Assembly (NCBI GenBank): GCA_041308845.1
Contig: JBFZAT010000002.1
Location: forward strand, 566 to 64,565
DNA length: 64,000 bases
Reading direction: 5' to 3'
Source: Candidatus Omnitrophota bacterium
Lineage (GTDB): Bacteria > Omnitrophota > Gorgyraeia > Gygaellales > Profunditerraquicolaceae
The translations under genes were made by a program, and so were the position numbers. The number at the start of each line of letters is the position of its first letter. The stretch's first letter is position 1. The notes below the pieces were generated by a model, which saw only the letters and a program-made list of their open reading frames with translations, had not been told where the DNA came from and searched no databases. Below, in pieces: positions 5,344-14,407 of the stretch.

Positions 5344-5598
5344 ATGGGTAAATTCAAACTGGATCTACATGAAATATTTAATGATAGTCGCAGAATCGAA
5401 GAATCACTGGAGAAGATTATTGCCGAGGCAGTAAAAAATAAAATTACTGAAGTTGAGATTATTCCGGGTAAAGGTAGCGGTCAATTAAAGAAAAGTGTGT
5501 TGCGTTTTCTGCAGCAGCCTAGGATCAAACAGCTCTACCATCGTTTGGAGAAAGATGATAAGAACTTCGGGCGCATTTTTGTACACTTTAGATATTAG
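5344..5598 (+). CDS. Smr domain protein
   Basis: LDLHE...IIPGKGSGQLKKSVLRFL matches the Smr (MutS2 C-terminal) fold. Start moved to the ATG at 5344, immediately after the xfp stop, because the longer ORF overlaps xfp. Confidence 0.65.
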   Translation: MGKFKLDLHEIFNDSRRIEESLEKIIAEAVKNKITEVEIIPGKGSGQLKKSVLRFLQQPRIKQLYHRLEKDDKNFGRIFVHFRY

Positions 5599-5608
5599 AT
5601 ATAGCATA

Positions 5609-5735
5609 GAAGACGTTTTACATAACTAATTGCCAAGTCGTGGATTATAAAACAAATATTTAATGGTATAATACAATAATTGTTTTATAAATATAAGATA
5701 GCCAGAGGTTTATATAGAACGTCTTATTTATTAAA
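5609..5735. repeat. copy 1 of a ~117-nt intergenic element bounded by 10-bp terminal inverted repeats (AGACGTTTTA ... aACGTCTt)
   Basis: Shares extended similarity with 14073-14200: agacgtttta[c/t]ataac, an internal taattgtttt, and aacgtcttat[t/g]tattt at the far end. Confidence 0.55.
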
Positions 5736-5813
5736 ATATACATAATATTACTGGACAAATCTTGAATATATGTTAAACTTATCAAGTAGTGAATAAAGGA
5801 TTAGAAGTTTGTA

Positions 5814-5852
5814 GGCCGCGAGGTTTAGAAAATATCCTTCGCGGTTTTTTGT
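5814..5852 (+). terminator. terminator-like hairpin plus U-tract inside the cspA upstream/leader region
   Basis: ggccgcgagg ... ccttcgcgg stem followed by tttttt; lies only ~45 nt upstream of the cspA start codon. Confidence 0.5.
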
Positions 5853-5897
5853 TTCTGCCATTATTTGCTAAAATTTTAGAGAAAGGGGGAGTAAATA

Positions 5898-6098
5898 ATG
5901 GCAAAGGGAAAAGTAAAGTGGTTTTCAGACCAAAAAGGGTTTGGGTTTATTACGCCTGAATCCGGTAGCGATGTATTTGTTCATCACAGCGCAATCCAGG
6001 GCGAAGGTTACAAGTCTCTAGCTGAAGGTCAGGATGTTGAGTTTAACATCGAGAAGGGGCCTAAAGGCGAGCAGGCTACTAATGTAGTCAAGCTGTAA
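5898..6098 (+). CDS. cspA: cold-shock protein (CspA family)
   Basis: 66 aa; [14 protein letters not shown] (RNP1) and VFVHHSAI (RNP2) motifs; strong RBS aaaggggga. Confidence 0.9.
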
Positions 6099-6102
6099 AC
6101 CA

Positions 6103-6143
6103 AATACCATAATAGCCTGGCTTCAATTAATTTGAGGTCAGGC
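6103..6143 (+). terminator. Rho-independent terminator after cspA
   Basis: atagcctg-loop-caggctat stem followed by tttttt. Confidence 0.7.
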
Positions 6144-6250
6144 TATTTTTTTCGCTACGAACTGCACACCGGTGCAATAAGCGCCGGAGTTTTTGCTAAT
6201 GTGCTAAGCGCTATGCAGCACTGGTTATGTTTGTACACAAGGGGGTAAAA

Positions 6251-6451
6251 ATGAACACAGGAAAGATTAAAAAATTAGTTCGGGACAGAGGTTTTGGTTT
6301 TATTAGTGATACTGATGGCCGGGAGTTATTTTTCCACCAGAATAGTTTGGTCGAAGTTAAGTTCGCTGCCCTAAATGAGGAGCAGTCAGTTTCCTATGAA
6401 GTTGAAAAATCTGATAAAGGCCCGCGGGCGATTAATGTACGCCTGGTTTAA
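6251..6451 (+). CDS. cold-shock domain protein (divergent second paralogue)
   Basis: RGFGFISDTDGRELFFHQ is a CSD signature. Start taken at the internal ATG (MNTGKIKK) preceded by gggggtaaaa. Confidence 0.75.
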   Translation: MNTGKIKKLVRDRGFGFISDTDGRELFFHQNSLVEVKFAALNEEQSVSYEVEKSDKGPRAINVRLV

Positions 6452-6492
6452 AATTACTTTTGATTTAATTTAAAAAGTGTATAATATAGTTT

Positions 6493-6876
6493 ATGAAAAA
6501 GAAGCAGAAGGAGAAATTCGTAATTGATTGTCTTAAGTGCCGCAATCAAGCAGATTGCTGCCGTTTCGGTGCCTGGATTGATCTAGAAGAAGCTAAGAAG
6601 ATATTAGCTTTAGGAATAAAGGGTGATTTTTTTCATTTAGAAATAGATAGGGATTTCCCTTCCGGTTATAAAGTGGGCACTAGTTACGAAGATGAACCGT
6701 GCGCTTTTCAGGATATTGATGGTTTGTGCCGCATACATAAGGTGGATTATAACCTTAAACCGTTAACTTGCAAAGAATTCCCATATGAGGGGGATAAAAT
6801 CGCCCCGATTGCCGATGTATTGTGTGTGGTGCATAAAGCCAATATTCGCAAGGCTAAAGCCGGCAGGAAAAATTGA
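6493..6876 (+). CDS. YkgJ/UPF0153-like cysteine-cluster (putative Fe-S or Zn binding) protein
   Basis: N-terminal C-x2-C-x5-CC motif (CLKCRNQADCC) typical of the putative zinc- or iron-chelating domain, with further conserved Cys downstream. Confidence 0.45.
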   Translation: MKKKQKEKFVIDCLKCRNQADCCRFGAWIDLEEAKKILALGIKGDFFHLEIDRDFPSGYKVGTSYEDEPCAFQDIDGLCRIHKVDYNLKPLTCKEFPYEGDKIAPIADVLCVVHKANIRKAKAGRKN

Positions 6877-7139
6877 GCATGGGTACCCAGAAAGATCCGC
6901 GCTGGTATTTTAAAACTTGGTCATTGGTTATTGCTTTTGTTTGCGTTGGGCCGTTTATGCTGCCCCTTGTTTGGGTCCATCCTCGTTTTAGCCTAAAATT
7001 AAAGCTGGTTATTACTTTGGTGGTATTGAGCATAACCTGTATTATAACCGGAATTTTGATAAGATCATTAAAGTCGATTATCAGTTATTATCAATATGAA
7101 GTATACTCAAGGGACTATCGGCCGGGTTTTTCTGGTTAA
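6873..7139 (+). CDS. small membrane protein (two predicted TM helices)
   Basis: TTG/ATG start overlaps the upstream stop by 4 nt. Two hydrophobic segments. Overlaps the next gene by 44 nt, so the call is uncertain. Confidence 0.3.
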   Translation: MSMGTQKDPRWYFKTWSLVIAFVCVGPFMLPLVWVHPRFSLKLKLVITLVVLSITCIITGILIRSLKSIISYYQYEVYSRDYRPGFSG

Positions 7140-7533
7140 GTTCGATAATCAAGATATTCTAATTTCGAACCTAAGTGCATTAGCCAAGAAGGAAAAGATT
7201 AAAGCTGCCACACTAATTTTTATCGGCGCCCTCAAATCAGGTAATTTAGTGACTGGTCCTAAACATCCGGTTATCCCGCCGCAGCCTAATAAAGTGGTAT
7301 TCAAGGATGGTTGGGAAGTGATGGGGCTGGGCACGCTTTTTACAAACTCTCAGGGGCCCCAGATTCATATTCATGCCAGCATGGGTAAGAAAAATAAAGT
7401 TTTGACTGGATGCCTGAGAGGCAATTCTAAAGTTTTCTTAGTCATTGAGGCAATTCTGTTGGAATTAAAAGGAGTAAAGGCGCACAAAGAAATCGATCCG
7501 GCTACCGGCCTTAACCTGCTTAAGATTTTATAA
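7096..7533 (+). CDS. PPC/DUF296-domain protein (PD1-like predicted DNA-binding fold)
   Basis: GRVFLVKF...D...I..L...A...K...A..IF.GALKSG..V.G pattern characteristic of DUF296/PCC domains. Confidence 0.5.
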   Translation: MKYTQGTIGRVFLVKFDNQDILISNLSALAKKEKIKAATLIFIGALKSGNLVTGPKHPVIPPQPNKVVFKDGWEVMGLGTLFTNSQGPQIHIHASMGKKNKVLTGCLRGNSKVFLVIEAILLELKGVKAHKEIDPATGLNLLKIL

Positions 7534-7537
7534 GTTT

Positions 7538-9409
7538 ATGCCCACCAAACTATTCGGTAAACTCAATTCTTTTATCTTTATTTTTTTAATTATAATGCTC
7601 GGAGCCTTGGTATATCATAATTGCCTAGGTGGAGATTTTATTTGGGATGATCTCGGATTAGTCAAAAATAATATTTATATCAGAGGTTGGTCAAACTTAC
7701 CCGTAATTTTTACCCAGAATATCTGGTCCGGAGTAGGCGAAGGGTCGACATTATACCGGCCGCTACAAATAGCGACCTATTTGTTGGACTATTCTCTATG
7801 GAATTTAAATCCAGCAGGATATCATTTTACTAATGTTTTACTGCATATTTTAGCAGCTTTAACTCTGTATTGGCTGCTTTGTCTGTTATTTAAAAACCAA
7901 ATCTTAGCATTATTTTCTAGCTTATTGTTTGTGGCTCACCCGGTTCAGGTTGAGGCAGTGGCTTATATTGCCGGCCGGGCGGATCCTTTAGCGGCCATAT
8001 TTATTTTTATTTCTTTTGCATTTTATTTAAGGTTCTTGCAGAGTAAAAAAATGTTGATTTTAGTTATGGCCGGCTTAAGTTTTATCTTGGCGCTTCTATC
8101 CAGAGAGAACGCTCTCGTCCTTCCGGCATTACTATTGCTTTATCATTATGTTTTTAAAAAGAAGTTAGAGCCAAAGTCGTTTCGGCCGTTTTTAGTTATC
8201 GCTAGCGTATATATTATTTTAAGATTAGCTTTTAAAGGCACAGTTTTTTATGATATTCCGGCGGCGAGCACTCTTGCCCAGCGAACCCCGGGTTTCTTGG
8301 CTGCGCTGGCTAGTTATTCTCGGATTTTATTGCAGCCTTTTAACTTACATATGGAGTATGGCAATCTGTATTTTAGTTGGTTTTGTCCTGAAGTATTATT
8401 GGGTGCGGGAATACTTTTATTACTCTTTGCTGGAATTTTGAAAAGCCGGCAGCGCCAACCGTTGGTTTGTTTTTCTTTATCCTGGTTTATAATCACACTC
8501 CTACCCTCAGCCAATCTTTACCCAATCAATGCTTATATGGCTGAGCATTGGCTTTATTTACCGTCTATTGGATTTTTTGTCATTATCGGTCAAAGTTTTG
8601 CTTTTTTATATGCCAGAGGAAGACTTAGATTATTAGCGTTAGCTGCTTTAATTTGCTTGTTGATTTTTTATACCGATTTAACCATAAAACAGAACGCTTA
8701 TTGGCAATCGGAAAAATTTTTCTATAAAAGGACCTTATTCTACGGCCCTAGTAATGCCCGGGTACATAATAATTTAGGCAACCTTTATTTACGCTCGGGC
8801 AATATAGATGCCGCCATTAAAGAATATTTAAGGGCGATTGAAATCAGTCCGGGCTTTGCGTATGCTTACCGTAATCTCGGAGACCTTTATTGTACTATCG
8901 GAAATCCGGAAGCGGGGATAAAAATGTATTTAATGGCTGTCCGGGCAGACCCTCGGTATGCGCCAGCCTATAATAATATTTGCAATACTTATATTTCTTC
9001 AGGTAGGAATGAAGAGGGGATAAAGTATTGTCAGATCGCTTTGGGATTAGATAATTCTTTGGCATCAGCTTATTACAATTTGAGCAATGCCTACTATAAC
9101 TTAGGCAATAAAAATGAGGCAATGCAAATGCTCAAAGAATCTATTAAGTATAATCCTTTTTATACAGAAGCTTATAATAATCTGGCTGCCCAGTATACGG
9201 AAAAAGGCGAGATCTCCGCGGCGATTGGTTTATGGAAGAAATGTGTAAGTATCGACCCGGATTTTATTGTTGCGCATTTCAATCTGGCGGTTTTTTATTT
9301 AAAGCTGAAAGATTATGATTTAGCCATTAGGCATGCTGATCGAGTGGTGGCTTTAGGTGGGCAAATTGATGCGCGGTTTTTAGAAGAGCTGAAGCCTTTC
9401 AGGAGGTAA
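7538..9409 (+). CDS. TMTC-like polytopic membrane protein with C-terminal TPR repeats (putative protein O-mannosyltransferase-like)
   Basis: N-terminal half has ~10 TM segments with a DD motif (FIWDDLGLV) near the first loop, as in TMTC/PMT_2-like glycosyltransferases. The C-terminal ~200 aa carry multiple 34-aa TPR units (AYxNLGNxY..). Confidence 0.65.
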   Translation: MPTKLFGKLNSFIFIFLIIMLGALVYHNCLGGDFIWDDLGLVKNNIYIRGWSNLPVIFTQNIWSGVGEGSTLYRPLQIATYLLDYSLWNLNPAGYHFTNVLLHILAALTLYWLLCLLFKNQILALFSSLLFVAHPVQVEAVAYIAGRADPLAAIFIFISFAFYLRFLQSKKMLILVMAGLSFILALLSRENALVLPALLLLYHYVFKKKLEPKSFRPFLVIASVYIILRLAFKGTVFYDIPAASTLAQRTPGFLAALASYSRILLQPFNLHMEYGNLYFSWFCPEVLLGAGILLLLFAGILKSRQRQPLVCFSLSWFIITLLPSANLYPINAYMAEHWLYLPSIGFFVIIGQSFAFLYARGRLRLLALAALICLLIFYTDLTIKQNAYWQSEKFFYKRTLFYGPSNARVHNNLGNLYLRSGNIDAAIKEYLRAIEISPGFAYAYRNLGDLYCTIGNPEAGIKMYLMAVRADPRYAPAYNNICNTYISSGRNEEGIKYCQIALGLDNSLASAYYNLSNAYYNLGNKNEAMQMLKESIKYNPFYTEAYNNLAAQYTEKGEISAAIGLWKKCVSIDPDFIVAHFNLAVFYLKLKDYDLAIRHADRVVALGGQIDARFLEELKPFRR

Positions 9410-9465
9410 AAATATTGAATGTTTCTAAAATTTAGCATGCTATAATACCAAGCCAAGGAGTAAAA

Positions 9466-9795
9466 ATGGACTTTAGCCTAATTAGAAAAGATATGAAGAT
9501 GTTTAGTTTTGAAGCTTTGCGTACGGATTGCGATAATTTCTTTGAAGGGGTGATCGTGGGCGAAGAATTAAAGAAGTTGAACGATCAATTGAAGAACTTG
9601 TTCGGGGAGCCGGTCTATCCTTCTAAAAATAAACTGGCGCATAAAGTACGCCAAACCGTAGATGGGTTCGGAGGGGTGCTGCCGGGCCAGATTTTATATT
9701 ATAAAAATTCAGGTGTAGAAAGTATCTTGGCGATGCTTTGGCCATGGAAAGATGGCCAGCGCACCACAGTTAAAATTATTCAGCAAGAATTATGA
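9466..9795 (+). CDS. hypothetical protein, translationally coupled (ATGA overlap) to DAHP synthase
   Basis: 109 aa, no recognisable family. Its stop overlaps the aroG-like start. Confidence 0.45.
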   Translation: MDFSLIRKDMKMFSFEALRTDCDNFFEGVIVGEELKKLNDQLKNLFGEPVYPSKNKLAHKVRQTVDGFGGVLPGQILYYKNSGVESILAMLWPWKDGQRTTVKIIQQEL

Positions 9796-10820
9796 GTTTT
9801 ACTTACTTACAGAAAATTCCCACACCGGAAGAGATTACTCAGCAGATGCCGATGTCAGCCAGACTGATTAAGTTAAAAGCTGACCGAGATAGGGATATTT
9901 TAAATGTTTTAAAAGGTGGTGATGACCGCTTGCTGTTAATTGTTGGTCCCTGCTCAGCGGATAATACTGATGCGCTTTGTGAATATGTCGGGCGTCTAAG
10001 CCGCCTGCAGGATAAGGTTAAAAAAAGGTTAATCCTGATCCCGCGAATTTATACCAATAAGCCGCGGACTACTGGAGAAGGCTATAAAGGAATGTTGACT
10101 CAACCCAAAGCTTCCGAAGGGCCGAATATCGCCCAGGGAATTAAGGCGATTCGCAAGATGCACGTTAAGGTCTTGAGCGAATCTGGATTAACGGCAGCCG
10201 ATGAAATGCTTTATCCGGGAAATTACCCGTATCTGGAGGATATTTTAAGTTATGTGACAATCGGGGCCCGTTCGGTAGAAAATCAGGAGCACCGTTTAAC
10301 CGTCAGCGGTTTAGATATTCCGGTTGGCATGAAAAATCCTACCAGCGGGGATTTGAATGTTTTACTGAATTCTGTTCAAGCCGCGCAGATTCAGCATACT
10401 TTTATTTATAACGGTTGGGAGGTTAAGACTCAAGGTAACCGTTTAAGCCATTGTATCCTCCGCGGGGCAATCGATCACCATGGGCAAAGTATCCCCAATT
10501 ATCATTATGAAGATTTAATACAATTCACTCAACTTTATTTGAAACGTAATCTGGCAAATCCCACGGTTATCGTGGATACTAATCATGCTAATTCTGATAA
10601 ACATTTCCAAGAGCAGCCCCGGATCGCCGAAGAGATTATGCATAGTCGTGCCAACTCTAAAGATTTAAAAAAGATGATTAAAGGATTGATGGTTGAAAGT
10701 TACCTCAAAGAAGGCCGGCAGGAGCCCGGCGGTAAGATTTTTGGCCAGTCAATTACCGACCCTTGTTTGGGCTGGGCAGATACTAAACGGTTAATTTTAG
10801 AGTTAGCGGATAATTGTTAA
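9792..10820 (+). CDS. aroG: 3-deoxy-7-phosphoheptulonate (DAHP) synthase, class I (AroG/F/H type)
   Basis: LLLIVGPCS, IPRIYTNKPRT and the downstream metal-binding HxxD/NHANSD blocks typical of type I-alpha DAHP synthases. Confidence 0.85.
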   Translation: MSFTYLQKIPTPEEITQQMPMSARLIKLKADRDRDILNVLKGGDDRLLLIVGPCSADNTDALCEYVGRLSRLQDKVKKRLILIPRIYTNKPRTTGEGYKGMLTQPKASEGPNIAQGIKAIRKMHVKVLSESGLTAADEMLYPGNYPYLEDILSYVTIGARSVENQEHRLTVSGLDIPVGMKNPTSGDLNVLLNSVQAAQIQHTFIYNGWEVKTQGNRLSHCILRGAIDHHGQSIPNYHYEDLIQFTQLYLKRNLANPTVIVDTNHANSDKHFQEQPRIAEEIMHSRANSKDLKKMIKGLMVESYLKEGRQEPGGKIFGQSITDPCLGWADTKRLILELADNC

Positions 10821-10838
10821 TTAACCAGAGGAGAAAAG

Positions 10839-12305
10839 ATGAGTTTGAAGTTTGATTTTAATAATTTATTTGATTTTAGTGTACAAGGGCATGGAGTAAG
10901 TCAATCCGAAATTGACGAAATTATACCGCAGGTGCAAAAGGCCTCTGCGCACTTAAAGAAGATCATCGCTGATGCACCAACTAGGGAGAAATTGAACCTG
11001 GAGTGGGTAAAATTACCTGAGCAAAAAGAAGCAGATATTGTTGTGGTTGAAAAGATTGCCCGCTTGATTAATAGGCAATATGCTAATGTTATTTTTTTGG
11101 GAATCGGCGGTTCATTCTTGGGGCTTAAAGCCGCTCAGGATGCGCTATGTGCGCCTTATTTCAATGAATTTAAATCATTACGTAAAAAAGTTCCGCGGAT
11201 TTATTTCGAAGGCAACAATTTAGATCCGGATACCTTGCAAGTCCTCTTAAAAAATCTTAATCCTAAACGGACCTTTGTGGTAGTTATTTCTAAATCCGGT
11301 GAAACTACTGAGACTAAAGCTGCGTTGATTTTAGTGGAGGTCTGGCTTAAGAAAACCCTGGGGGCTAAATATGGCCGGCAGATATTGGTGGTCACCGATC
11401 CGGAGAATGGTTCTTTGCGGAAAAGGGCCCAGGTCGAGCAGAATAAAGATCCTTTGAGTTTTCGTTCTTTACCGCTTTTAAAAGGGGTAGGCGGAAGGTT
11501 CTCTGAGTTTAATATGGGTCTTTTACATTTAGCGATTGTCGGAGTAGATATCCGTAAGTTGTTTCTAGGCGCTAAAGATATGCTGGTTAGGTGCAGTAAG
11601 GAGAATCTTTTAGAAAACCCGGCTTATTTATACGCAACTTTACATTATATCCTTTATTTAAAAAGGGCAAAGGCTTTAGCGATTTTGATGCCTTTTTCAC
11701 AAACTCTTAAATCTACCGCAGATTGGTATGTTCAACTTTTAGCCGAAAGCCTTGGGAAAAAATATCACCGTCAGATCCAAGTAGATATTGACGGAGTGGA
11801 GAGCTGGTTAGCCAGCAAGAATGATTTGTTTAACTTAGGCCGGACTCCGATCGCTGCCGCCGGCACGAATGATCTCCATTCGATCCAGCAGAATAATGTC
11901 GAAGGTCAGAACAATAAAGTGGTTACTTTTATTCGGGTTGAAAAATTTAAAACGGATTTAAAGATACCCGGTCAAGGTGATTTATTATCCGGTAAAAGTT
12001 TTGGTCAGCTGATGCAACTGGCTCAAGAAGCCACGGAATGGGCTTTGGTTAGCCAGAACCGGCCTAACTGCACGATTATTATGCCGGAAGTCTCGGCGTA
12101 TAATTGGGGGGCTTTGCTCTTTTTCTTTCAGCTGTCCACGGCTTTTGAAGGGGAATTATTGAATATCAATGCTTATGATCAACCCGGGGTGGAGGGATAT
12201 AAGAATTATATGTATTATAAATTAGGTAAACCCGGAATCCCGGCGGCGATTACCGAAGAGATTAAGAACAAGCCTTTAATTAAAAAACCTGAATATATAC
12301 TTTAA
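10839..12305 (+). CDS. pgi: glucose-6-phosphate isomerase
   Basis: IFLGIGGSFLG and VVISKSGETTET sugar-isomerase (SIS) motifs of the PGI family. Confidence 0.8.
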   Translation: MSLKFDFNNLFDFSVQGHGVSQSEIDEIIPQVQKASAHLKKIIADAPTREKLNLEWVKLPEQKEADIVVVEKIARLINRQYANVIFLGIGGSFLGLKAAQDALCAPYFNEFKSLRKKVPRIYFEGNNLDPDTLQVLLKNLNPKRTFVVVISKSGETTETKAALILVEVWLKKTLGAKYGRQILVVTDPENGSLRKRAQVEQNKDPLSFRSLPLLKGVGGRFSEFNMGLLHLAIVGVDIRKLFLGAKDMLVRCSKENLLENPAYLYATLHYILYLKRAKALAILMPFSQTLKSTADWYVQLLAESLGKKYHRQIQVDIDGVESWLASKNDLFNLGRTPIAAAGTNDLHSIQQNNVEGQNNKVVTFIRVEKFKTDLKIPGQGDLLSGKSFGQLMQLAQEATEWALVSQNRPNCTIIMPEVSAYNWGALLFFFQLSTAFEGELLNINAYDQPGVEGYKNYMYYKLGKPGIPAAITEEIKNKPLIKKPEYIL

Positions 12306-12306
12306 A

Positions 12307-12378
12307 TTTAGCGGGTCCTGTTTTAGGTGTTTTCTAGCGTTCAGCGCGCTGCGGAAGCACCCAAGCCACCCGCTAAAT
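12307..12378. repeat. ~70-nt imperfect palindromic intergenic repeat, copy A
   Basis: ttagcgggtcctgttttaggtgttttct...cacccaagccacccgctaa. The ends pair (agcgggt/acccgct). Near-identical to the copy at 35979-36047. Confidence 0.7.
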
Positions 12379-12386
12379 TTTTAATA

Positions 12387-13355
12387 ATGCTAAAAATTGG
12401 TAAATTAAAGTTAAAGTCTAATTTAATTCTTTCGCCGATGGCTGGAATTACAGACCTGCCATTTAGGATGCTTTGCCGTAAATTCGGTGCGGAGTTAGCT
12501 TTTGTGGAGATGATCAACTGCCGTTCGATTAGCCATAAAAGCAGGAAAACTAAACATATGTTGTCAAGCACTCCTGGTGATAAACCGCTGGGTATCCAAA
12601 TTCTGGGAGCGGAAGAGCAATATGTTCTGAAGGCTTTGGATGTCTTGAGAGGGTATAAATTTGATCTCTTGGATTTTAATGCCGCTTGCCCGGCAAAGAA
12701 AGTAGTGCGCCGGGGGGAGGGGGCGAGCTTGCTACAGGAACCGAAGAAATTGGTTAAAATATTAAAATTAGTGGTTAAAAACTCCTGGCTCCCGGTAACC
12801 GTTAAAATCCGGGCTGGTTGGGATAAGCATTCGGTTAATGCTAAAGAGGTCGCTCAACTGGCTCAGGACTGCGGAGTTCATGCTTTATTTATTCACGGCC
12901 GGACTAAAATTCAGGCTTATACTGGTCGAGTGGATTACGATATAATTAGAGCAGTGAAAAAAGTTTTAGCTATTCCTTTGATTGCCAGCGGAGATGTTTT
13001 TTCCGGACCATTAGCTGAGAAGATGTTTGATGAAACCGGATGTGACGGGTTGGCGGTAGCCCGAGGCTGCCTGGGAAATCCTTGGATCTTCCAAGAGATT
13101 AACGAATATCTTAAAAACGGTAAAATAATTGAACGTCCTGGGAAAAAAGAGCTGGCTGCGATTATGCAGGAACATCTGAATGCCAGCATTGATTTCTACG
13201 GTGAAAGAAACGGGGTAGTGATCTTCAGGAAATTTTATATCTGGTACACTAAAGGGTTATGCAAGGTCCGCCGTTTAAGAGAGAGGGCTTCAGGGGCTAA
13301 AACCCGCCTGGAGGTAGAAAAGATTATCAGAGAGGTGTTCCCTGGATCTAATTAG
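12387..13355 (+). CDS. dusB: tRNA-dihydrouridine synthase
   Basis: LILSPMAGITDLPFRML and the conserved FMN-binding TIM-barrel blocks. Start taken at the ATG (MLKIGK) after the repeat. Confidence 0.85.
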   Translation: MLKIGKLKLKSNLILSPMAGITDLPFRMLCRKFGAELAFVEMINCRSISHKSRKTKHMLSSTPGDKPLGIQILGAEEQYVLKALDVLRGYKFDLLDFNAACPAKKVVRRGEGASLLQEPKKLVKILKLVVKNSWLPVTVKIRAGWDKHSVNAKEVAQLAQDCGVHALFIHGRTKIQAYTGRVDYDIIRAVKKVLAIPLIASGDVFSGPLAEKMFDETGCDGLAVARGCLGNPWIFQEINEYLKNGKIIERPGKKELAAIMQEHLNASIDFYGERNGVVIFRKFYIWYTKGLCKVRRLRERASGAKTRLEVEKIIREVFPGSN

Positions 13356-13389
13356 TTACGGATTTCAAAATTCTAACCTTTTTAAACAC

Positions 13390-14055
13390 ATGCCGCTGTT
13401 TGACGGAATTGAATATGTCGGGCAGGATGAGGATATGGTCCGCCAATATCGAGCGGTAAGAGAGAATCAGCCCTGCATTATCTTGTCTTTAAATTTTATT
13501 CGTAATGACGAAAAGATTCTTTGGGATGCGGTAGAGGATTTTATAAAGCGTAGTACGATCAGCGCTACTGGAAGTGTGCATGGTGCATATATTTTCGATC
13601 TCCTGACTATTGATATTCACAAAGAGATTAAGACATTTAAACATACAGAGTTATCTAATTTGATTGTGAATACAGCTATTAAGTTGGCTACTGGCCAAAC
13701 CAAGATGATTAAGTATTCATCCGCTTATGCCTTGATCCAAAAAACCGTAGATTTTGAATGGGGCAAAATTAATTTTAAAACCGCGGTGAATGTATTTAAG
13801 GATAAATCGGATTACCTGGATTTGTTGATCAAACAGCTTCTAAAAGATTTTACTTTTTCGCATGATCCGGTAATCCTGCTATTAAATGACTTGAGTCAAA
13901 ATCCTATCTTTAATCTGCAGAATCAAACTCAGCAGTTGCGCTTAAAAAAAGTGATCGCTGATTTAATTCCTCAATCTGTGGAATTTATTCCAGAAATTTA
14001 TATCCAGGATAAAGATGGAGCCAGGGAGCTTCTCTCTGGCACAAAGTTAAGATAA
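13390..14055 (+). CDS. hypothetical protein
   Basis: 221 aa ORF in line with its neighbours; no recognisable motifs. Confidence 0.45.
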   Translation: MPLFDGIEYVGQDEDMVRQYRAVRENQPCIILSLNFIRNDEKILWDAVEDFIKRSTISATGSVHGAYIFDLLTIDIHKEIKTFKHTELSNLIVNTAIKLATGQTKMIKYSSAYALIQKTVDFEWGKINFKTAVNVFKDKSDYLDLLIKQLLKDFTFSHDPVILLLNDLSQNPIFNLQNQTQQLRLKKVIADLIPQSVEFIPEIYIQDKDGARELLSGTKLR

Positions 14056-14072
14056 TATAAATTTGAGAGATA

Positions 14073-14200
14073 CGAGACGTTTTATATAACCATTTGCGCA
14101 GCAAAGGATTAAGAAACAAATAAAGAAAGAGTAAGAAAAAGTAATTGTTTTGTAATCTACTGGCATATAAATGTTTACGTAAAACGTCTTATGTATTTAA
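14073..14200. repeat. copy 2 of the ~117-nt TIR-bounded intergenic element (AGACGTTTTA ... TAAAACGTCT)
   Basis: Perfect 10-bp terminal inverted repeat at 14075-14084 and 14180-14189; internal similarity to 5609-5735. Confidence 0.55.
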
Positions 14201-14407
14201 CAAAAATCCCCGGGAAAGCGCTCCGGGGCTTCTTGTAGGTGATAGGCCTAATAGCTTTCGCTATCGTTCCTAGCCTCCTTGTTTGGGCGTTGCTTGATTG
14301 TAAACAAGTATGCCATATAAATTCCAGGATTTCAAGCCCAGTAAAAATAAATTTTTTATTAATCTAAGATAGAAAGGTTAATTTTTCTATAGTATAATAT
14401 TACCAAA

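Follow-up and report, generated by a model that had tools for sequence, protein, structure and literature searches.

Two short intergenic stretches in the genome of a Candidatus Omnitrophota bacterium belong to a previously undescribed, low-copy, MITE/REPIN-like repeat family that is specific to Candidatus Omnitrophota. The family is explained, with moderate confidence, as a nested-palindromic, non-coding, non-autonomous mobile element of the MITE/REPIN kind. Both stretches lie in the window, that is, the whole 64,000 nucleotides analysed here, and comparison with related genomes indicates that both were inserted between genes.

Two copies of a four-arm palindromic unit

The unit consists of four conserved arms and three variable stretches between them. 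An outer inverted repeat (AGACGTTTTAYRTAAC / GWTAYATAAAACGTCT) surrounds an inner inverted repeat (GTTACAAAACAATT / AATTGTTTTGTAAC), and the two pairs have a GTTTT..TAAC core in common. On each side, about 17-18 nt of variable sequence separate the outer from the inner arm. Across the family the apical stretch is 8-29 nt long and the entire unit 106-122 nt. The arms are AT-rich; those of the outer stem are 16 bp long, and 91% of its cells pair across 16 members. A half unit, comprising one outer and one inner arm, measures about 54 nt and has a weak palindrome of its own. All copies are intergenic, and the element has no coding capacity, holding only spurious ORFs that start in an arm.

Copy 1 (114 nt, positions 5611-5724, no strand assigned) has the stop codon of an Smr-domain gene (5598) on one side and the cspA promoter on the other. 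Read on the forward strand, its outer arm A (AGACGTTTTACATAAC, 5611-5626) and inner arm B (ATTATAAAACAAAT, 5644-5657; family consensus GTTACAAAACAATT) are followed by their inverted partners, inner arm C (AATTGTTTTATAAA, 5678-5691) and outer arm D (TTTATATAGAACGTCT, 5709-5724), the latter matching arm A at 14 of 16 positions. The variable apical stretch (5658-5677, no strand) holds TGGTATAAT (5664-5672), a sequence without conservation across the family. Copy 2 (115 nt, 14075-14189, again without a strand) follows the stop codon (14055) of a gene for a 221-aa protein with no Pfam match, and precedes the terminator of a convergent conserved non-coding block. Its forward-strand arms A to D are AGACGTTTTATATAAC (14075-14090), ATTAAGAAACAAAT (14108-14121), AATTGTTTTGTAAT (14143-14156) and TTTACGTAAAACGTCT (14174-14189).

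An initial annotation had reported two look-alike elements at these places, and they are confirmed by exact matching, shuffles and a profile. AGACGTTTTAYATAAC matches exactly at 5611 and 14075, and its reverse complement is found with 2 mismatches at 5709-5724 and 14174-14189; at up to 2 mismatches, the 64 kb contain no site besides those of the two copies. With up to 3 mismatches allowed there are 6 matches in the 64 kb against 1.4 expected, a number reached in 0 of 100 shuffles. A profile built on 16 members recovers both copies at full length (E = 4e-17; copy 1 covers HMM positions 1-111), and detects no third copy in the 64 kb.

Several details of the annotation change. Terminal inverted repeats are present, as it held, but they measure 16 bp, or up to about 19 with a weaker AATA extension, instead of 10 bp. 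The lengths of 117 and 115 nt become 114 and 115 nt for the core from AGACG to CGTCT. The internal motif TAATTGTTTT is indeed shared, and turns out to be one arm of the second, inner inverted repeat. The right-end motif taken alone (AACGTCTTATKTATT, 3 mismatches) does not rise above chance.

Aligned with their flanks, the two copies have a mean column identity of 79% over 178 columns. Their variable stretches are only about 43% identical, which marks the two copies as old and counts against the mobile-element reading.

Relatives without the element and the neighbouring promoters

The initial annotation had proposed a comparison with a related strain lacking one copy. About 15 syntenic contigs (75-80% nucleotide identity) have the same gene order, and neither copy is present in their corresponding spacers. 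In 10 of the syntenic sequences, nothing but the plain spacer separates the Smr stop codon from the conserved cspA promoter; the window has about 135 extra bases there. In BLAST comparisons with every relative, the alignment stops at 5597-5610 and picks up again at 5728-5735 around copy 1; around copy 2 it stops at 14026-14042 and picks up again at 14195-14223. The profile finds no element in about 0.3 Mb of syntenic relatives. A MAG of the same species, GCA_041308905.1, has both copies. No empty site closer than about 80% identity was found, exact-protein look-ups with RecG, the 221-aa protein and Smr returning the same-species MAG only.

An alternative that the initial annotation had raised is a shared operator or promoter module for cspA and recG. 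Both copies do lie upstream of these stress-related genes; the distance, put at about 160-200 nt, is 173 nt from the end of the element to the cspA ATG (5898) and 218 nt to the recG ATG (14408). However, the conserved promoters of both genes lie outside the element and downstream of it. That of cspA (TGGACA, 16 nt, TG-TAAACT; 5752-5779, forward strand) precedes a conserved 5' leader that contains a hairpin and a T-run, and TACTGGACAA and the cspA leader are invariant in 10/10 sequences of alignment A2. That of recG (TAGAAA, 17 nt, TATAAT; 14370-14398, forward strand) comes with ATAGTATAAT, which is invariant in relatives. Copy 2 is separated from recG by a conserved non-coding gene that is convergent and has a terminator of its own, and other copies of the element adjoin unrelated genes. 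Relatives without the element all keep the cspA and recG promoters; the element therefore reads as an insertion, and the shared module is scarcely credible. In this window, the repeat does not serve to co-regulate cspA and recG.

Nor does the element appear to contain a promoter. The extended -10 that had been noted in copy 1 (TGGTATAAT) is confined to the apical stretch, and is absent from copy 2 and from every other member, while hexamers in arms C and D are, on inspection, badly spaced. A candidate promoter in the left flank of three other loci, TTGTCA (L028, L034 and L041), reads as the -35 box (TTGACA) of a divergent MerR-like gene on the other strand.

The wider family and the signs of mobility

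The search for other copies suggested by the initial annotation has produced a multi-copy family in other genomes. A pattern scan and a profile search together give about 20 more copies and three half or partial copies beyond the window, and nearly all of them lie in Candidatus Omnitrophota MAGs and metagenome contigs. The strict two-arm pattern, for which less than one chance match is expected, gives 9 loci in species-representative genomes, 6 of them in MAGs titled Candidatus Omnitrophota and 3 in a single MAG titled Planctomycetales, as well as 11 loci in metagenomes. Six MAGs carry matches: JAQUOV01, JAQUSM01, JBAZUE01, JBAZOE01, JBFZAQ01 and CAZEBD01. The inner arms are absent from the search pattern, yet they are present in all but two matched loci. 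Two loci of the metagenome scan, L035 and L036, resemble the family in the arms alone and were excluded. The half or partial units found by the profile are L027 5050-5103, L028 6521-6575 and L025 3787-3819.

Collections of viruses, plasmids and phages yielded no relatives, and a looser pattern run on viral contigs gave unrelated chance matches only. Rfam returned no family at gathering score or at E up to 10, only spurious miRNA and sRNA models far below threshold. The searchable literature contains no description of the element or of its end sequences, and small repeats of Omnitrophota are likewise undescribed there.

Copy number is low: 2 in the window, 3 in MAG CAZEBD01 and 2.5 in one JBAZOE01 contig, with a single strict-pattern match in a 922-kb contig and another in a 277-kb contig. 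Copies cluster locally within a few kb, with 2.5 around one efflux operon in L028, 2 in L029 and 2 in the window. Eight copies lie 10-35 nt beyond a stop codon. Besides the efflux operon, the neighbours of other copies include a 430-aa gene, an rpsA-like gene, response regulators, and ORFs that read as glgC-like and MFS-like.

Prokaryotic MITEs are non-autonomous, mostly intergenic elements of 50-800 bp, with terminal inverted repeats of at least 10-15 bp and target-site duplications of 2-10 bp (PMC11602168). The initial annotation had read the two copies as a MITE, and part of this reading stands. The unit is small, non-coding and intergenic (106-122 nt) with 16-bp terminal inverted repeats, it occurs in several dispersed copies, and it differs by presence and absence between syntenic relatives. 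It has also been duplicated within one contig: L029 402-507 and 1145-1250 are about 99% identical over the element and 16 nt to one side of it, the rest of their flanks being unrelated. A duplication of the target, a high copy number and a parent transposase, all hallmarks of MITEs, were not seen.

The search for target-site duplications that the initial annotation had proposed found none: 13 of 18 copies, including both in the window, have no direct repeat of any length (offsets 0-3, lengths 1-10). TA stands at both ends in 5 of the 18, neither of the window copies among them; TA is itself palindromic, and may equally be a weak extension of the arms. A TTAA or TA target would be true of only a few copies. 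A 9-nt direct repeat by copy 1 (ATATAGCATA / ATATACATA) was rejected as a target duplication because it does not abut the ends.

The 64 neighbouring proteins include no recurrent transposase family, and no autonomous insertion sequence with the same ends and a transposase was seen in about 250 kb of element-bearing loci. Among 601 six-frame ORFs within about ±4 kb of the copies, an IS608 TnpA query matched no Y1-transposase-like ORF at E up to 10, which is a weak negative.

A further line of evidence comes from a MerR-like / P-II-like locus that is occupied in 4-5 genomes. Between its orthologous copies the inner arms are 82-100% identical and the variable stretches 49-76%; third codon positions of the flanking genes are 53-85% identical. 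The conservation of arms in vertically inherited copies argues for a function at the level of the host or of a system, over a purely selfish, decaying MITE.

One such function would be that of an RNA hairpin in 3' untranslated regions (a terminator, an insulator, or an mRNA-stabilising or RNase III site) that is selected and only occasionally duplicated. The usual place shortly past a stop codon fits this, as do the strong fold on either strand (MFE z-scores of -3.8 to -9.1), the stem base GACG/CGUC with UUAUU after it, and the drift of the variable stretches at about the third-codon-position rate while orthologous arms stay conserved. The stems also have 22 G-U pairs against 11 A-C mismatches, but this excess is not significant (p = 0.08), and it does not decide which strand would act as RNA. 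Against such a hairpin, every measure of covariation equals its shuffle, so that the stems are conserved as sequence and not as pairs alone. There is no proper U-tract at the element, whereas the real terminators of this genome have one, and a one-sided terminator with an asymmetric T-rich tail was rejected, the TATT extension on either side being a weak extension of the arms. Moreover, relatives manage without the element at these sites, one copy precedes an rpsA-like start codon by 28 nt, and copies take both orientations with respect to the upstream gene (6 against 2). A host hairpin is considered unlikely. Independently transcribed small RNA genes would share the stable fold and the conserved blocks, and could point to TGGTATAAT inside copy 1, but the absence of a conserved promoter or terminator within or around the unit, of covariation and of an Rfam match makes them a very improbable explanation. 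The palindromic unit prefers neither strand, and the variable stretches are complementary to their flanks no more than by chance; read as guides, in the manner of bridge or omega RNAs, their longest matches to the ±300-nt flanks are no better than those of shuffles.

Alternately, the unit may be an att- or dif-like site at which a site-specific recombinase inserts or exchanges small gene cassettes. A full and a half element in L027/L030 enclose a two-gene cassette with a CopG-like antitoxin, a layout expected if a half-site circle had recombined with a resident site; the clustering of copies in L028, L029 and the window and the sequence conservation of all four arms agree with this. This is, however, the single cassette-like case. 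Between the two window copies lie housekeeping genes that are syntenic in relatives without the element, no recombinase gene recurs nearby, and the spacing of the arms is unlike that of attC or dif. The arms resemble the XerD arm of dif (9/11), a similarity that was set aside, as there is no partner arm at 6-bp spacing. Recombination sites are held to be improbable.

The favoured reading remains a non-autonomous mobile element. Units have been gained at new intergenic sites, duplicated within a genome, and are also found as halves. An enzyme acting in trans would recognise the arms and copy or move the unit. It might be a transposase that binds inverted repeats, or a RAYT-like single-strand transposase, the latter suggested by the hairpin-forming doublet design and the long vertical persistence. 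Copies may persist only at harmless sites, typically 10-35 nt after the upstream stop codon and before the next promoter. Read-through from the upstream gene would produce a two-tier hairpin, with a 16-bp stem, a large internal loop, a 14-bp stem and then UUAUU. Such a hairpin could stabilise 3' ends, be cut by RNase III or terminate transcription weakly. In the window, copy 1 stands between the Smr gene and the cspA promoter, and copy 2 between the 221-aa gene and the convergent small non-coding gene; the cspA and recG promoters are left untouched.

Known small repeats and the meaning of the family

Among the closest known systems is the REPIN, a REP doublet that forms a hairpin and is mobilised by a RAYT transposase (Bertels & Rainey 2011, PMC3116915; bioRxiv 10.1101/2021.07.10.451892). 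The element is likewise a doublet of two inverted half units (A-B and C-D) that folds to a hairpin, exists also as singlets, is extragenic and is locally clustered. It also shows long vertical inheritance with conservation of the recognised parts, since a locus is shared though third codon positions differ by 15-47%. Unlike GC-rich REPINs, it is AT-rich, its half unit of about 54 nt is itself only weakly palindromic, a genome holds a few copies as against tens to hundreds, and no RAYT was found near it (IS608 TnpA query, about ±4 kb round the copies).

The nested boxes bring to mind the attC sites of integrons, which also have two nested pairs of inverted boxes, a centre that varies in sequence and length, and a position just downstream of genes. 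In attC, the R''/L'' and L'/R' boxes are of 7 bp with 5-6 bp spacing and a GTTRRRY core, in a cassette array with an intI gene. The element differs in having arms of 14-16 bp that lie about 17-18 nt apart, and it has no GTTRRRY, cassette array or integrase.

The closest known systems also include other small repeats. The Correia elements of Neisseria (CREE/NEMIS) and the ERIC/IRU elements of Enterobacteria, of about 100-200 nt, are also non-coding and intergenic, with terminal inverted repeats and a position at gene ends; they are co-transcribed with their neighbours, form long hairpins and can alter the fate of mRNA via RNase III or RNase E (PMC10969869, PMC3184786). The element has no sequence similarity to them, no clear TA duplication and no conserved promoter, and differs by its second, sequence-conserved inner inverted repeat. 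It is also far less numerous than Correia, which exceeds 100 copies per genome (PMC10969869, PMC3184786). The SPRITE, RUP and BOX repeats of Streptococcus pneumoniae are likewise small and intergenic, some are terminator-like, and they cluster, with mutual insertion nearby (PMC3049150; PMC10969869). Their architecture and sequence are different, and SPRITE has a true rho-independent terminator shape that the element lacks.

A bolder version, which is speculative and judged unlikely, treats the four-arm unit not as a decaying selfish MITE but as the cis half of a persistent, vertically inherited two-part system of Omnitrophota. This could be a REPIN-like "commensal" replicator with its own single-copy enzyme, or a recombination site that captures small cassettes, for example the CopG-type toxin-antitoxin pair between the full and half units of L027. 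If true, such a system would explain purifying selection on all four arms at orthologous loci and neutral drift elsewhere.

As a MITE-like family, the two stretches extend the known range of small palindromic repeats in bacteria modestly, and the low copy number together with selection on the arms is the sole feature beyond a routine new MITE. For annotation, they carry a warning: spurious "MFCNS..." ORFs begin inside the arms, and promoter-like strings in the unit lack conservation. Almost no member of the phylum Omnitrophota has been cultured. The four-arm signature is easily searched, and gives a marker for insertion polymorphism between Omnitrophota populations and a handle toward the enzyme that recognises the element.

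Architecture of the element

Two look-alike stretches lie before cspA (copy 1) and recG (copy 2), as the initial annotation described, and they can be aligned end to end with a column identity of 79%, flanks counted in. The sequence AGACGTTTTAYATAAC occurs exactly at 5611 and 14075, and its reverse complement, with two mismatches each, at 5709-5724 and 14174-14189. No further site with at most two mismatches is found in the 64 kb window, and the observed count was reached by no shuffle. Likewise, repeat finding and a family profile give no third copy in the window. The terminal inverted repeats noted earlier are real, although they span 16 bp rather than 10 bp. The lengths are nearly identical, with cores of 114 and 115 nt instead of 117 and 115 nt. 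The internal TAATTGTTTT also exists, and belongs to a second inverted repeat as one of its arms. Contigs of the MAG GCA_041308905.1 match the window at 99.9% identity and contain both copies.

An alignment of 16 non-redundant family members shows a unit of four conserved arms and three variable stretches. Arm A, AGACGTTTTAYRTAAC, comes first (5611-5626 in copy 1, 14075-14090 in copy 2), followed by a variable stretch of ~17 nt and by arm B, (A)AGTTACAAAACAATT (5644-5657, 14108-14121). B and arm C, AATTGTTTTGTAAC (5678-5691, 14143-14156), are separated by an apical stretch whose sequence and length (8-29 nt) both vary. A variable stretch of ~18 nt, whose weak AAGATAT..TA..GG motif gives the unit polarity, then leads to the last arm, D, GWTAYATAAAACGTCT (5709-5724, 14174-14189). 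A pairs with D, and B with C. Since GTTTT..TAAC occurs in both arm pairs, one may regard the unit as a pair of half units in inverted orientation. The variable stretches of the two copies are ~43% identical and, judging by their sequences, the copies are old relative to one another.

Either strand is predicted to fold into an outer stem of 16 bp, a large internal loop and an inner stem of 14 bp (z-scores, -3.8 to -9.1). Covariation is absent from the stems: paired cells amount to 89.4%, against 88.8% in shuffles, and the other measures all fall within the shuffle range. An excess of G-U pairs over A-C mismatches in the stems (22 vs 11) is not significant, and no complementarity of the variable stretches to nearby DNA was found. 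The stems are conserved as sequence, an indication that they are recognised by a protein and not simply selected for their pairing.

Insertion beside conserved promoters

Many contigs, from metagenomes and from MAGs, encode an identical CspA protein and share the window's gene order (phosphoketolase, Smr, cspA, cspA2 ... pgi, dus ... recG). These syntenic contigs are about 73-78% identical to the window in DNA. At copy 1, the alignment stops at 5597-5610 and restarts at 5728-5735 in every syntenic contig. At copy 2, it stops at 14026-14042 and restarts at 14195-14223 in contigs that include recG.

In a multiple alignment of the Smr-cspA spacer, most relatives have the stop codon, ~17-22 AT-rich bases and then directly the promoter. 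The window has ~135 additional bases between the stop codon and the cspA promoter. This promoter, TACTGGACAA...TGTGTTAAACT, is invariant, and the 5' leader is nearly so. Upstream of recG, the relatives have in common a ATAGTATAAT promoter and, over ~130 nt, a block with hardly any variation; copy 2 is located on the far side of this block, in spacer that is different in every relative. Since the relatives share both promoters and the copies lie outside them, neither gene's promoter is in the element. An extended -10, TGGTATAAT, had been noted in copy 1, but it is confined to the apical stretch and has no counterpart in copy 2 or other members, which argues against a promoter there. On these alignments, the element is an insertion, not a promoter.

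Several nearby features were also seen. The cspA leader (5786-5897) hardly varies across relatives. It contains a hairpin, GGCCGCGAGG...CCTTCGCGG, and then TTTTTTG, shortly before the Shine-Dalgarno sequence. It resembles a terminator or attenuator, and gives no match to the Rfam cspA thermoregulator. A second cspA paralogue follows at 6227-6451. On the minus strand between copy 2 and recG, relatives only ~75% identical elsewhere keep a non-coding block (14197-14335) almost unchanged. The block has a TTGAAA-N17-CATACT promoter and a predicted ~100-nt transcript, in which an SD-like AGGAGGCU pairs with AGGCCU around a GNRA hairpin (GAUAGC-GAAA-GCUAU), followed by a free CACCUAC and a CCCCG/CGGGG + UUUUUGUU terminator. 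It resembles a conserved small RNA transcribed divergently from recG, and matches nothing in Rfam. Ribosomal RNA genes stand at the start of the window: a 23S gene, of which the 3' end occupies 1-106, and a 5S gene at 353-469. The 64 kb contain no tRNA genes.

The family in other genomes

Further copies exist in other genomes. Genome and metagenome collections were scanned with a pattern of one extended and one short arm, for which <1 chance match is expected in 596 Gb. Because the scans demanded near-perfect outer arms, they underestimate both diverged members and true copy numbers. Species-representative genomes gave 9 loci: six in MAGs whose records bear the title Candidatus Omnitrophota, the other three together in a single MAG titled 'uncultured Planctomycetales' (host taxonomy being that of record titles). 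Metagenomes gave 11, two of them on the same contigs as genome matches; among the 11, locus L037 is near-identical to L034, and two loci agree in arms only. The inner arms, left out of the pattern, are found in all true matches. An nhmmer profile brought up further units: locus L029 has a second full copy, L028 a degenerate full-length one plus a half copy, L027 a half copy, and L025 a fragment of an arm. No related sequences were found in IMG/VR, PLSDB plasmids or GenBank phages.

An example of duplication within a genome is L029, whose two copies share ~99% identity over the element and an adjoining 16 nt (TATTRCCTTATTRC) at one end; the other flanks are unrelated. Copies also persist. L025, L028, L034/L037 and L041 all have a copy at the locus between a MerR-like gene and a P-II-like gene with an AcrB efflux operon; a second persistent locus is filled in L031 and L039. 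At the former, variable stretches (49-76% identity) diverge about as much as third codon positions of the flanking genes (53-85%), whereas identity is 91-100% in the outer and 82-100% in the inner arms. The search pattern did not include the inner arms, so these carry no ascertainment bias; against third codon positions they give p = 0.01-0.04 per pair, the pairs not being independent. Another copy or half copy often lies within 0.6-8.5 kb.

Some neighbourhoods deserve mention. In L027 (4045-5103) and in L030, which shares this locus, a full and a half element enclose a cassette of two genes read from the opposite strand. It encodes an 81-residue CopG-like antitoxin (borderline Pfam score) and a 92-residue partner without a Pfam match, as if it had recombined into, or beside, a resident copy. 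In L028 (581-693, 6521-6575, 7293-7404), a TetR - TolC-like - membrane-fusion - AcrB - P-II-like efflux operon lies between two full copies, and a half copy adjoins the tetR stop codon. A tiny Gly/Arg/Lys-rich ORF (MPN[KR]DGTGPRSGSRGARDGRG...) occurs twice in L029 (181-324, 559-690), once on each side of an element copy; the one ORF copy tested has no Pfam match. Short tandem 8-mer arrays, CTTATTAT x4 and CTTATTGC x3-4, occur at the right element flank of L034 and in L029 (1251-1290). They begin within the outer arm (..CGTCTTATT..) and extend outward, and look like slippage-type expansion of the element end. Spurious ORFs or extensions starting at a TTG within arm C ('MFCNS...'; L027 5059-5220, L028 5012-6577 at the N-terminus, L029 186-446) are a likely source of mis-annotated gene starts beside the element.

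Mechanism and relation to known repeats

The element is probably a non-autonomous repeat. In this model, a trans-acting enzyme would recognise the arms and, through some transposition chemistry, copy the unit to new intergenic sites. Copies just behind stop codons would be tolerated. Read-through transcription would then yield a two-tier hairpin that may affect 3'-end formation or processing. Sequence comparison directly shows that the family exists, how its units are built, that insertions are polymorphic, that a unit was duplicated within one genome, that half units occur and that the arms are constrained, whereas the enzyme, its chemistry and any effect on RNA are inferred.

Eight copies are found 10-35 nt past a stop codon; another precedes an rpsA-like start codon by 28 nt. 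A 3'-UTR hairpin maintained by the host is a reading compatible with the repeat model, and on its own a rather unlikely one. It is improbable that the element serves as a recombination site for cassettes; no mobile-element-type protein family recurs among 64 neighbouring proteins. An sRNA gene family seems slightly less probable still, and the element has no Rfam match, even at E up to 10. Least probable is the regulatory module of cspA and recG that the initial annotation offered, since both promoters lie outside the element.

On the repeat model, the element works like known small palindromic intergenic repeats, namely the Correia and ERIC MITEs and REPINs (PMC10969869, PMC3184786, PMC3116915, PMC11602168). 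The earlier suggestion of a MITE-like mobile element holds for a multi-copy family with insertion and the L029 pair, and for size, inverted repeats, dispersal and polymorphism, but no target-site duplication is visible. Like REPINs, the element is a doublet of inverted half units, with singlets, clustering and vertical persistence. It differs from them in composition and copy number, and no RAYT was found; a crude search of the element-bearing loci for Y1 transposases was negative. No mention of such an element in Omnitrophota, or of the arm sequence, was found in the literature searched. These likenesses place the element among the known small palindromic repeats as a new family, whose unusual feature is a low copy number together with selection on each of the four arms.
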